Positions 30,001 through 64,000 of a DNA stretch of 64,000 bases are shown here, piece by piece (position 1 is the stretch's first letter; each line of letters starts with the position of its first letter). This stretch comes from a virus. Taxonomy: Duplodnaviria > Heunggongvirae > Uroviricota > Caudoviricetes. The DNA lies in IMG/VR virus record IMGVR_UViG_2687453508_000006; one strand, 5' to 3'. The position numbers are program-made.

Positions 30001-33000
30001 CGCTGATTCAGTCTGTGTCATAAACCGGGATTTACTGCGAAAGTTTATTAATGGAAAGGAAACCGCCAAAATTAGCCACCATGCTGCGCATCTCACACCC
30101 GCGCATGCACTTGCTGCATCTGTCCTTACGGATATCCGTGGTGGGGTTGTCGAACTCATCCGCCACTGCCCCGCCCGTGTAACCACACTCATCAGAGCGG
30201 TAGGTCCACATACAGGTATTCGCCAGCATAATGCGACCGGGAAACAGCGCTCCGTCCGTCTCCGTCGGTGTTGCCAGCACAAACGAGGCTGTCATGGCCG
30301 TCAGCTCTGACATCTGCTCCACCACCCAGCGGTCTCTCAGCTCCTGCTCCGGGTCCGCTTCCGGATTGCCCGCCACAAAATTCACCGCATCCAGAAAACG
30401 GGCATACACCCGGCGGCGGACCACCGTGGCACCCACCAGGCTCTGCAAATCCTCCGCCATCCCGGTGACAAGACCGAACAGATTGGACACCGTCAGCGAC
30501 GGGCGGGCACTGCTGCCCTTCCCGTTCATCTCAAAGCCACTGCCGTCAATCGGGTATACCTGATATTGCCGCCCCTGCCAGGTGACCGCCTCCCCTTTTT
30601 CATTCAGCTCATTACAGAAAAAATACCGCTCACCGCCCTGCACCGTCAGGTCGATTTCCCAGAGCACCACCCGCGGTGACTGCTCTGACTTAACCGACTC
30701 GTTCAGGCTTTCTTCATGAATATTCTGCATCAGTTCACCACCTGCTCTATCGTGCAACTGAAATCACTGTACCGGGCATTATCCGTGACACTCCACTCAC
30801 GGCACACAACCCTCACCGTCCGGTTATGTTTCGGCGGTCGCCACAAAAAGGCACGGTAACCACCATGCCAGGATAAAAATTCATCCAGCCAGCGCCGGGT
30901 TGACTCATCCGTCACCCGGAACACCGCCTGAAACGTCTTCAGTTGAGGATTCAGCCCTGTGGGGCGGCGCTGTTCATAACCGTCACCAAACCGCACCCTC
31001 ACCACCGACGGCTTCTCACTCACCTGCATCCCTTCACGCGGGACCAGATGCAGCGTTTTTATCTCAGCCACTCAGCATTCCTCCGTCACGTCGCATGGAC
31101 AGCATCACCGCCTGCACCCGCTGGTCAATCAGCTGCACAAGACTGCCTGCCGCCTCCGGCCCTATCTGTCCGTTAGCCCCGTCATTCTGAATGGCAATGT
31201 GGTAGACCGGGGAATACACCAGACCAGCACTGCCGTTCATACTGCCCACGGCGCGTACGCCCAGCGAGCCATCCGCCGCCCGGGTCAGGGGCATAATAGC
31301 TTCAGGTCCGGCTTCCCCCATCAGCCCGGCCCCTTTTGCAAACGCAAAGTACGTGGGCGTGTCCACAATGCTGTTGCTGTACGCGCTCAGGTTTGCCGAG
31401 GTATACACGCCGCCTTTTGCATTGGCCACCGCTCCGCCCAGCCAGTCACCAATGCTGCCGAGAAATCCTCCCGCACCGGACATACCGTTTGCCGCCGTCT
31501 TAATTCCGTTGACAATCGCGGCATTCATAAGAACTTTTGATATTTCCTGCAGTACGGATGAGGCCCAGCTGCGCCATTCCACTTTATTTCCGTTCAGCAT
31601 CTCCGTGATGTTATTCACCATCCCTGAGATACCCTCCGTCGCCAGCTGTGCTGCCTGTGAGGCGTAATCGGACGCATTATCCACCCAGTTACTGAATCCC
31701 TCCTGCAGCCCTTTCTGCCAGTCCGCACGCTGCACATCCGATTCGGCATAAAAGACTGCCTGGTCCTTAAGGCGTTCGCTCAGATACTGCGCGTTCTGTG
31801 CCAGCGCCTGTCTGTAAAAATCCTCACTGATATCCCCGGTCTGATACTGAGACTGAAGGTCCGCATCCTTCTGGCGGAAGCTGTCGCGGATCTGCTGCAA
31901 CTCCCGCATGCGTTCCCTGGCTCGTTCCCCCTGCCCGTACCCCAGCAGTTCAGATTCATTTGATGCACGCGCAGCCACATTATCATTCTTCAGGGTCTCT
32001 TCCCGGTACCGCAACTGCTCCCGGATTTTTTGCTGGTCAATCAGGGCCGCATTGCGCAGCAGTTCCTGCTTCTGTATCTCCGACAGGGTTTTCAGTTCAC
32101 CCAGCGCTGTCTGGTACTTCAGCTTCGCCAGCTCCGTGTTCTGACCGGCCAGTGCCAGTTGCTCTTTCTGCTGCTTCAGCAGCCGGGAAAAACTGTCTTC
32201 CGCTTTTTCCGTCTCTGATTTTCCACCCCGGGATTTGGGTTTATTCACCTCGTTATTGCGCCAGGCTTCCAGGGCATTACTGATATAACGTTGTCTCGCC
32301 TCCTGATACGGATCCCCCACAAAACCGAGGTCATCCGCCGCATACCCCAGTCGGACGCGCTCTTTTTCTTCCCCTTTCAGTCTGGACAGGGCCAGCTCAC
32401 GCTCTGTTTTTGTCAGGGCACTCTGCTGTTTATCATCCAGAGTGGCCTGTGGCAGCCGTAACGGCACATTCACCAGTCCCTGCCGCTGCTGAAGCAGTTC
32501 ATTCCCCAGCCCCAGCAGACGGTTGAATTCCGTATACTGACCGTTCATAACCAGCATGGACTGGTACACCTTATTCTGCTCTGCCGCCTGCTGACGAATT
32601 AACGCCACACGACGGTCTTCCAGCCCGGCAAGCACATCCTGAATGGACTGCGCTTTTTCCTGCATCTGTGCCAGACGGGACTGCTCAACGGCAAGCTGCT
32701 CTGTTGCCTGAGCAAGCCCTTCCGTTACGGTCTTCACCGATGTCAGATGGTTTATCATGAATCCGTCACCGGTCGTCCAGCCCGGGTTCGCCAGAACATA
32801 CTGATATCCTGCGATTTTTTCCTGCAGGGATTTCACCCGACTGGCCTGTTCATCAATCAGCCGGTTCTGCTCTGTCAGCGCCGCCCGTGTTCGTCCTTCA
32901 TTATCTGAGGCTTCAGGCAAAGACATTGACGGCGTTTTATGCGCGATTTCATCTATCGTCAGTGCATACTGGCGCGCAGACTCCCTGGCCTGCTCCTGAT

Positions 33001-63000: not shown

Positions 63001-64000
63001 CTAACTCCCTCGAGTATTTTGCATCGAGCGCAGCAACATCACGCTGGCGCACCTGCATGTCAGTAATGGTGGCATTCGCCTGTTCCAGCTCTCTGGCTTT
63101 TTTATCGCGCTGCGCTTTGTAGGTGAGCGCGTTGTCACGGTAATGGTTTGTTGCCAGCCACAGCGCACCATAGCCAACCGCCAGGACAATAATCACCACA
63201 CACAGAACACGGTTCATCTCTCTTTCACCCCACCAGTCCCGATAACGTCAGGACTCGCCAGGCGGTGGAAAAGAAAATGGCAACCAGCATGACTAAAAAT
63301 GAAATGCCGACAAGTACACAGAGGCTCTTCACCAGCGTTATGAGTTTATCTGATATCATTAGCCACCCCATCAATCCGCCTTTGTTATTTTCCCTTTGCC
63401 TGTATCAGCCAGGACAAAATCAATCAGCATATTCGCTTCATTTACCAGCGTACGGATTTTTGATACATGCGCGGCTTTAACCTGTTTCCACTCATTCAGC
63501 CCGGTAGCAAACACACTGGCAATGTTTTTATCCCGTTTCATGTCAGCACAAGCCTGGTTGAGTTCTTCCATCACGCTCATTTTACGGGGATTAACGACAA
63601 AACCCTTCGTCCAGTACTCGTAAAGAACATCGTCGCACTCTTCCTGATACCGGATGACCTTATCGCGGATTTCGGGTTTTACTTTGTTGGGATTAATGGT
63701 TTGTAGCCAGCCGGCAAGTTTTCGAAGTGGCATGGACACCATATTGCGTTGTTTCCCATCCTCAGCAACCATAACGATTTCCGTTATAGTTGACGCAAAA
63801 CGCTGTCTTAACTTAGCCAACTGTGATTGCCAGGCCAGCCCCATCCCCGCAACGACAGGTTTCATGGGAACGTATGGTTCGCCATTATGGTTAACTACAT
63901 AAAGAGAGTTGCCGTGAAACGGCACGGCCATCATATTCATCGGTTATTTCCTTTTAGTGATGAACCTTGTCTCACAGGAATCCAGCCCACAGAAAGGCAC

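Follow-up and report, generated by a model that had tools for sequence, protein, structure and literature searches.

Organization of the repeated late region

By its matches to deposited genomes, the window, that is the whole stretch of 64,000 nucleotides analysed here, belongs to an E. coli O157:H7 strain of the Sakai/Wll001 lineage and covers the region in which the lambdoid prophages Sp11 and Sp12 lie in tandem. Positions 1-24000 correspond to Sakai 2189034-2213033 at 100% identity, and Wll001 (CP064167.1) shows zero mismatches over 11001-47655 (36.6 kb) and zero differences of any type over 11001-44572. Sakai Sp12 is 99.57% identical to the window, with a tract of 98 mismatches at 35435-38600. 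The window equals the references exactly over 1-44572 and 54039-64000, leaving about 54 kb clean outside 44573-54038.

Within this region a unit of 17,322 bp (30326-47647) is followed directly by a second, head-to-tail copy that starts at 47648 and reaches the window end, with 98.6-99.1% identity. Judged by gene content, the unit is the late operon of Sp12, a lambda-like prophage that is defective and non-excisable (PMC2669165), and comprises lambda-type tail genes from L to U, an HK97-type head module, the terminase and a lysis cassette reaching to R. Copy 1 (30326-47647, minus strand) was delimited by self-BLAST, comparison with Wll001, gene-by-gene mapping and the Sakai annotation. It begins within gene L, at codon 135 of 232, and carries the 3' 294 nt of L followed by M, H, T/G, V, U, a gp10-like gene, head closure, connector, portal, protease-capsid, TerL, TerS, HNH, YlcI, Rz, the antirepressor, R and 13 nt of the ydfR 3' end, the unit ending 55 bp beyond the R start codon. 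Gene order and content agree with the annotated Sp12 late region, to which the copy is collinear and nearly identical. Copy 2 (47648-64000, minus strand) is cut by the window end at the equivalent of copy 1 position 46850; its visible part amounts to 0.94 unit, and its far boundary lies beyond the window.

The late operon is expected to run uninterrupted from holin, ydfR and R through head and tail genes to J. In the Sp12 of deposited genomes (Sakai, Wll001, EDL933 and F8798) the late region is single, and R is followed by ydfR, the holin gene, Q and the early region, whereas in the window R joins the L' gene of a second L'-to-R module, and neither ydfR nor the holin gene S occurs in the window.

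Self-BLAST gave two matches, 30326-32664 with 47648-49982 (98.6%, 29 mismatches, 3 gaps) and 32809-46850 with 49966-64000 (99.1%, 67 mismatches, 38 gaps), both with E = 0, so chance is no issue for the repeat. The recurrence of 30326-47647 read by the initial annotation is thereby confirmed, as are the SNPs that it saw in M, of which there are four. The offset between the copies, said to drift from 17,322 to about 17,145 bp, measured 17,322 at the start and 17,157 once past the indel in the tape-measure gene, and had fallen to 17,150 where the window ends, which is close. Small deletions in copy 2 had been given as the cause. Small indels, about 15 of them, do contribute, but most of the drift comes from a 163-bp segment of the long tape-measure allele (32668-32830, minus strand) that only copy 1 has, partly balanced by a 9-bp insertion in copy 2. 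Tape-measure length is a natural polymorphism, long in Sp12 and F8798 and short in Sp6, Sp10 and EDL933. Not every difference is a change of copy 2, for copy 1 is the one that departs from the reference at 44573-46953.

The joint between the copies

A three-way comparison placed the novel joint at 47648-47655, an 8-bp microhomology, CCAGCGGT, common to the natural sequence upstream of R (the 3' end of ydfR) and to gene L. Its second occurrence is at 30326-30333, and the reference matches end at 47655. The chance of a microhomology of at least 8 bp at a random join is ~1e-4. No errors occur in the 700 bp left of the joint or in the 105 bp right of it. In copy 1 the complete gene nearest to the joint is that of the R endolysin (lysozyme; 47059-47592, minus strand), which is intact. 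Across the joint runs a fusion ORF of 144 aa, L' (47618-48052, minus strand), in which the first 135 codons of minor tail protein L are followed by nine new codons (PEDLTYPGI) from the sequence upstream of R. Its translation matches Pfam Phage_tail_L at profile positions 3-107 of 206, and a search of 153 billion gene positions found no record of its product. In EDL933 and Xuzhou21 the ompW-adjacent prophage has a naturally truncated L, 42 bp from this joint.

We searched for the joint in 5,426 complete E. coli genomes using a spanning probe of 1.3 kb, and among 17,249 places in 4,260 matching genomes none covered at least 80% of it. The joint is missing even from the near-identical strains Wll001, Sakai and Xuzhou21. 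The exact joint sequence had zero matches in viral, species-representative and metagenome contigs, BLAST gave no joint-spanning match in phage or plasmid collections, and in the literature nothing was found on a duplicated Sp12 late region.

A direct head-to-tail repeat with one novel joint is the geometry of a tandem duplication, and a clean, short microhomology such as CCAGCGGT suits it well. RecA-independent tandem duplications at short microhomologies in enterobacteria have reportedly been described by the Roth laboratory; duplications of this type are identical at birth and unstable. The window resembles them in its direct repeat, single novel joint and 8-bp microhomology, and differs in that the copies lie about 1% apart over the first 4.7 kb and carry frameshifts. 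The second copy may be genuine, the 17.3-kb late region of Sp12 having recently been duplicated in the sequenced culture, whether throughout its cells or in a part of them, though in our view this is a rather unlikely origin. The CCAGCGGT upstream of R and the one within L would have been joined in vivo, by microhomology recombination independent of RecA or by a template switch. Technical errors, introduced where the reads of the two copies and of Sp6, Sp9 and Sp10 were inseparable, would then account for the garbled sequence and the indels around the joint. Structural variants associated with O157 prophages, duplications included, do arise in culture and in cattle (PMC8743559). The rearrangements described there by Fitzgerald et al. 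(2021) likewise involve lambdoid prophages and are sometimes found only in sub-populations, but they are 140 kb to 1.2 Mb in size, frequently inverted, and rely on homologous recombination between long prophage repeats, in contrast to the 17.3-kb direct repeat with a microhomology joint inside a single prophage seen here. The absence of the joint from all 5,426 genomes also argues against a duplication. Further, a clonal joint would have normal read support and should not coincide with the sole low-quality tract in 64 kb.

Alleles of the second copy

Of 121 substitution differences in copy 2, 97 are alleles of the Sp6-equivalent prophage of the same genome, and the remaining 24 lie within or adjoin the two garbled clusters described below. 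The Sp6-type patch begins 105 bp after the joint and is about 4.7 kb long, so that 47.75-52.34 kb consists mostly of Sp6-type alleles together with indels private to the window. Under a copying model the Sp6/Sp12 mosaic requires five switches, against one to six in natural paralogues; as it is no more fragmented than these it could be a real allele, and we dropped the mosaic as proof of an artefact. Over its last 11.7 kb or so within the window, from 52343 onwards, copy 2 shows zero substitutions relative to Sp12 and two private 1-bp indels, at 53090 and 54038, and from 54039 to 64000 it is reference-perfect. The head genes are identical between the copies, the exactly duplicated 7.7 kb being error-free, and at 61.7-64 kb copy 2 is closer to the reference than copy 1 is. 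As another known prophage copy 2 was rejected, the best full-length matches being 98.9% (F8798) and 98.8% (Sakai Sp10), with 98.2% for the tail part.

For a duplication the true Sp12 state of the copy 2 head and lysis genes is as expected if the event is very young, but youth leaves the approximately 100 Sp6-type substitutions unexplained unless polishing erred. A tandem duplication should be either young and identical or evenly substituted, and the differences between these copies are found only at 44.6-47.0 and 47.7-54.0 kb. The tandem duplication offered by the initial annotation thus fits in geometry and microhomology, whereas the absent joint, the confinement of error-like sequence to the joint region and the identical head genes speak against a fixed duplication of any age.

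The same annotation alternatively proposed an adjacent related prophage remnant. Copy 2 would then be an independent, older prophage adjoining Sp12 with frameshifts from natural decay, and a deletion at the microhomology would have removed the Sp12 early region and the distal tail genes of the neighbour. Deletions at microhomologies between tandem prophages are a common route of prophage decay, and Sp11 and Sp12 already lie in tandem here. The tail alleles of copy 2 are natural and unlike Sp12, and the natural truncation of L in the ompW-adjacent prophage also speaks for this reading. A remnant would however be expected to have its own att site, integrase, early region and distal tail genes with divergence over its full length, whereas copy 2, within the window, starts inside L and has none of these. 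The lack of substitutions from 52343 onwards and the closeness of 61.7-64 kb to the reference do not agree with an older element. The same remnant was found in none of the 5,426 genomes, Sakai, Wll001 and Xuzhou21 included, and a third prophage at this locus is seen in none of the related genomes. We consider a remnant highly improbable, also in view of the private changes, which are nearly all indels.

An anomalous tract around the joint

Comparison with the references delimited an anomalous tract of about 9.5 kb that spans the joint (44573-54038, or -3.1 to +6.4 kb relative to it). It holds all 16 small indels (1-6 bp) private to the window and both garbled clusters, and the clustering of the private changes within the repeat region has P ~6e-8. 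Private indels outnumber private substitutions 16:3, whereas the same columns of five natural paralogues give 2:171 (Fisher p ~1e-18). The indels often fall in short homopolymer runs. This spectrum looks more like error than like evolution. Decay of a remnant would not give the paralogue-discordant ratio, nor would it account for the private indels of copy 1 beside the joint.

The first garbled cluster (49982-50026, minus strand) lies in H', just past the boundary of the 163-bp indel, and includes the 9-bp insertion; its best match in the 5,426 genomes is 90%. The second (52197-52296, minus strand) covers the intergenic spacer between G and V and the 3' end of V', and changes from Sp12-type to Sp6/Sp10-type sequence and back at intervals of 10-20 bp, with small deletions in it; its best match anywhere is 89%. 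With best matches of 89-90%, natural alleles from a further paralogue were ruled out as a source of these clusters. Among the complete E. coli genomes none carries the copy 1 allele of 44400-47100, and as the best match is only 99.5% the copy 1 indels at 44.6-47.0 kb were likewise excluded as a natural allele. The state of 52950-54150 is carried by no genome, the best match over 2,916 places being 99.8%.

The private indels disrupt seven genes, all of which are intact in every natural paralogue examined. Two belong to copy 1. The gene for the lysis endopeptidase Rz (45605-46073, minus strand) is broken by a private +1 C at 45886 and is intact in copy 2 (62750-63217), and the antirepressor N-domain gene (46227-46790, minus strand) is broken by private indels at 46387, 46405 and 46734 (6 bp) and is intact both in copy 2 (63371-63940) and in the Sakai annotation. 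The accession of the Sakai protein still stands at version 1, which makes the original Sakai sequence of 2001 an unlikely source of the window. The other five belong to copy 2. The tape-measure gene H' (48386-51467, minus strand), a short allele of Sp6/Sp10 type that lacks 162 nt, has private deletions at 48636, 49202, 49822, 50996 and 51192. Three further genes on the minus strand (51824-53321) are all frameshifted, namely G' (51824-52192), V' (52219-52909) and U' (52978-53321), the private deletion at 53090 falling in the range of U'. The head-closure gene (53761-54112, minus strand) is broken by a private +1 C at 54038, the last anomaly of the window. Neither the truncated antirepressor product of copy 1 nor the N-terminal fragment of H' has a record among the 153 billion gene positions.

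Break-induced replication is frameshift-prone with early template switching, and DinB-dependent break repair in E. coli leads to -1 frameshifts near breaks. In a real MMBIR-like event, a fork broken near R might have been re-primed at the 8-bp microhomology in L and have switched template into Sp6 for about 4.7 kb, with frameshifts showered over about 3-6 kb around the joint by error-prone synthesis. Such an event would cover by one mechanism the microhomology joint, the Sp6 patch starting 105 bp past it and the excess of -1/-2 frameshifts confined to -3.1 to +6.4 kb. A noisy consensus of mixed reads gives the same pattern and is far commoner, however, and the alternation every 10-20 bp in the second cluster resembles consensus noise. 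A further mutagenic tract would be required for the copy 1 indels left of the joint, and no independent occurrence was seen in any collection searched; we find such an event very unlikely.

Origin of the second copy

Near-identical paralogous prophage modules such as those of Sp6, Sp9, Sp10 and Sp12 can give rise to mis-assembly and chimeric consensus in O157 assemblies. The window shares with such cases a unique joint, a local excess of indels, mixed paralogue alleles, and garbled sequence both at the boundary of a structural variant and at a hypervariable spot. An artefact should have a joint that is not reproducible in any other sequence and a local excess of error-type differences with clean surroundings, and both are found here. 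We therefore favour, with a probability of roughly 55%, that the second copy is no stable part of the chromosome, and that the joint and 44573-54038 are a thinly supported or chimeric bridge from sequence reconstruction. An assembly artefact of a repeated region was also among the origins suggested by the initial annotation, and it is the branch towards which the evidence leans, short of proof.

Such a bridge could stem from a few noisy long molecules, or from reads of two paralogous prophages, Sp12 and Sp6, that were piled up together. Noisy or mixed reads would leave residual indels of 1-2 bp, often in short homopolymers, garbling where the paralogues diverge most, and a tail segment with mainly Sp6 alleles, with true, well-supported Sp12 sequence on both sides of the bridge. 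From the spectrum and confinement of the private changes we infer that they reflect low or mixed read support and not biology. The bridging molecule itself may have been a chimera, formed in vitro or in silico, or it may represent a genuine but rare duplication carried by a minority of the cells.

Some features do not agree well with an artefact. Clean microhomology joints are typical of in-vivo illegitimate recombination or polymerase template switching, and the 8 bp seen here would not be given by random ligation or in-silico chimeras. The error-free sequence immediately flanking the joint is another such feature. The duplicated head genes, being error-free as well, argue against a simple polishing failure in repeats, and unpolished long-read errors in exact repeats were ruled out as the sole cause on this ground.

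Implications

If the bridge is an artefact, the duplicated module, the L' fusion ORF and the seven 'pseudogenes' should not be annotated, nor counted as prophage decay or gene dosage. It would also mean that the near-identical O157:H7 prophages Sp6, Sp9, Sp10 and Sp12 can locally corrupt an assembly of which the other 54 kb are perfect. If the joint is real, it would represent an ordinary, unstable microhomology duplication of the late genes of a dead prophage, with no obvious phenotypic consequence. Were the Sp6 patch and the shower of frameshifts shown to exist in the DNA itself, they would be a pointer to mutagenic break-induced replication and of specialist interest; and in the improbable case that the MMBIR-like event did take place, the region would preserve, as a natural 'fossil' inside a non-excisable prophage, the trace of mutagenic repair of MMBIR type in the chromosome of a bacterium.

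Identity of the repeated region

Positions 1-24000 of the window, which span the Sp11 early region, the Sp11/Sp12 border with its many IS elements, and the beginning of Sp12, were identical (100%) to E. coli O157:H7 Sakai NC_002695.2 2189034-2213033. At 618-870, prophage genes for tRNA-Arg (tct) and tRNA-Ile (cat) lie downstream of the Q-like antiterminator region of Sp11, as in the Sakai annotation. The border (15338-22499) carries nested IS629/IS1203, a split IS256-family fragment and ISEc8, with three nleG-family effector pseudogenes after them, and an 87% direct repeat of 175 bp pairs 21719-21884 with 22587-22761. 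No mismatches were found between 11001-47655 and the equivalent region of Wll001, a near-identical strain. Identity to Sakai Sp12 was 99.57%, with substitutions only in 35435-38600; this 3.2-kb tract, where the window and Wll001 share 98 mismatches against NC_002695.2, resembles a patch of gene conversion between paralogous prophages.

As the window matches the Sp12 region of both Sakai and Wll001, the repeated unit is the Sp12 late operon. It lies on the minus strand and comprises the last 294 nt of L, then M, H, T/G, V, U, head-tail joining genes, portal, protease-capsid fusion, TerL, TerS, HNH, YlcI, Rz, an antirepressor-domain gene and endolysin R. Sp12 is a known lambdoid prophage, defective and non-excisable (PMC2669165). 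The module belongs to the Sp12-type late region; its arrangement differs from every deposited Sp12, and there is no sign of a novel type of element.

In both window copies and in Wll001 the portal gene has a frameshift (about 38520), whereas it is intact in the current Sakai record. Its N-terminal 454-aa ORF gave a clear Phage_portal match, and the 407-aa ORF forming the C-terminal half of the annotated fusion gave no Pfam domain over the cut-off; the latter contains a 162-bp in-frame tandem repeat (3.3 copies, 95% alike; 37769-38298 and 54914-55443).

Geometry of the repeat and the joint

The initial annotation described a diverged direct repeat of 30326-47647 (copy 1) from 47648 to the window end (copy 2), and comparison of the window with itself, one of the checks it had proposed, bore this out in coordinates and substance. 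Two collinear direct matches were obtained, 30326-32664 with 47648-49982 (98.6%) and 32809-46850 with 49966-64000 (99.1%, 67 mismatches, 38 gap openings), the window end cutting copy 2. The falling offset was likewise recovered, from 17,322 through 17,157 to 17,150, most of the drop being a 163-bp segment of the tape-measure gene present in copy 1 and missing from copy 2.

After R, the genomes of Sakai, Wll001, EDL933 and F8798 continue with ydfR, the holin gene and the early region. The window ceases to match the references at 47655, and gene L sequence begins already at 47648. The sequence CCAGCGGT occurs both in gene L and in the stretch naturally upstream of R, and the joint is therefore a clean 8-bp microhomology; at least 8 bp would be shared at a random join with a chance of about 1e-4. 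The join produces a 144-aa fusion ORF, L'. Gene L is also naturally truncated in the ompW-adjacent lambdoid prophage of EDL933 (L001 3521-3883) and Xuzhou21 (L010 791-1153), at the equivalent of window position 30368, 42 bp off the L breakpoint; this nearness may be fortuitous or mark a fragile spot.

Of the 5,426 complete E. coli genomes searched with a 1.3-kb joint probe, 4,260 gave matches, at 17,249 places in all, none with coverage of at least 80%. Exact scans of viral, species-representative and metagenome contig collections did not find the exact joint, phage and plasmid collections held its two halves only apart, and the L' protein and two further truncated proteins private to the window had no record among 153 billion gene positions.

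Private changes on both sides of the joint

Both copies were compared with Wll001 and Sakai Sp12, Sakai Sp10, Wll001 Sp6, the EDL933 ompW-adjacent prophage and F8798. At 44573-46953 copy 1 differs from every reference, whereas copy 2 agrees with them. Here Rz and the antirepressor gene of copy 1 are disrupted by seven indels of 1-6 bp and one adjacent substitution; the resulting allele was found in no genome (best match 99.5%). The first indel (44573) lies between TerS and HNH, where cos is expected; the same intergenic region has a homopolymer at 44592 that is C7 in the window and Sakai and C6 in Wll001.

Copy 2 differs from copy 1 by 121 substitutions in 47753-52340, 97 of them alleles of the same genome's Sp6-equivalent prophage. 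The remaining 24 lie inside or adjoin two garbled clusters, 49982-50026 and 52197-52296 (best matches 90% and 89% in the 5,426 genomes), in the second of which two allele types swap every 10-20 bp along with small deletions. Nine isolated private indels of 1-2 bp (48636-54038), together with the deletions of the second cluster, disrupt H, G, V, U and the head-closure gene of copy 2; two of these indels, tested singly, were absent at 2,916 homologous places. The window is reference-perfect in 1-44572 and 54039-64000.

All 16 private small indels fall inside 9.5 kb spanning the joint (P about 6e-8 if spread evenly over the repeat region). Indel events and substitutions private to this tract stand at 16:3, against 2:171 for five natural paralogues together in the same alignment columns (Fisher p about 1e-18), and the seven genes broken here were intact in each natural paralogue inspected. 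Sp12's tail-tip gene, J (24884-28358), is also frameshifted, with 38 in-frame stops as one frame; in contrast to the private indels beside the joint, this is natural decay, J being 100% identical to that of Wll001, annotated as frameshifted, and annotated as three separate ORFs in Sakai.

Origin of the repeat

An indel-rich, gene-breaking spectrum on both sides of the joint, copy 1 included, is the signature of a poorly supported bridge built from little or mixed data. Were copy 2 an independent prophage remnant decaying beside Sp12, mostly substitutions along its whole length would be expected, but the changes are dominated by indels and lie beside the joint, on the copy 1 side too; we regard this origin as improbable, and a mutagenic break-induced replication event as equally so, both being less likely than an artefact or a duplication; the replication event would be the most novel of these readings. 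A genuine recent tandem duplication, probably sub-clonal, we consider rather unlikely, but it is kept alive by the clean microhomology, which also weighs most heavily against a purely technical origin. An evolved duplication, too, should carry mostly substitutions throughout, but from 52343 to the window end there are none relative to Sp12.

We rank first, at a probability of about 0.55, an assembly or consensus artefact, since the indel-dominated spectrum is confined to the sides of the joint and the Sp6 alleles and garbling fit mixed reads; the bridging molecule may be chimeric or a rare variant. If a pile-up or polishing step mixed reads from paralogous prophages, both Sp6-type alleles and garbling could result, and the garbled sites, one at the boundary of a structural variant and one in a hypervariable spot, would be consistent with this. 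The Sp6/Sp12 mosaic itself was not counted as evidence of an artefact, as under a simple copying model it does not exceed natural paralogues in fragmentation.

The observation is thus confirmed and adds nothing new in kind, while the readings first offered (tandem duplication, adjacent prophage remnant or artefact) are supported in part, with the last favoured and the remnant less likely. The structural variants known from O157 are large products of homologous recombination between prophages (PMC8743559), whereas the one in the window would be small, direct and microhomology-mediated.
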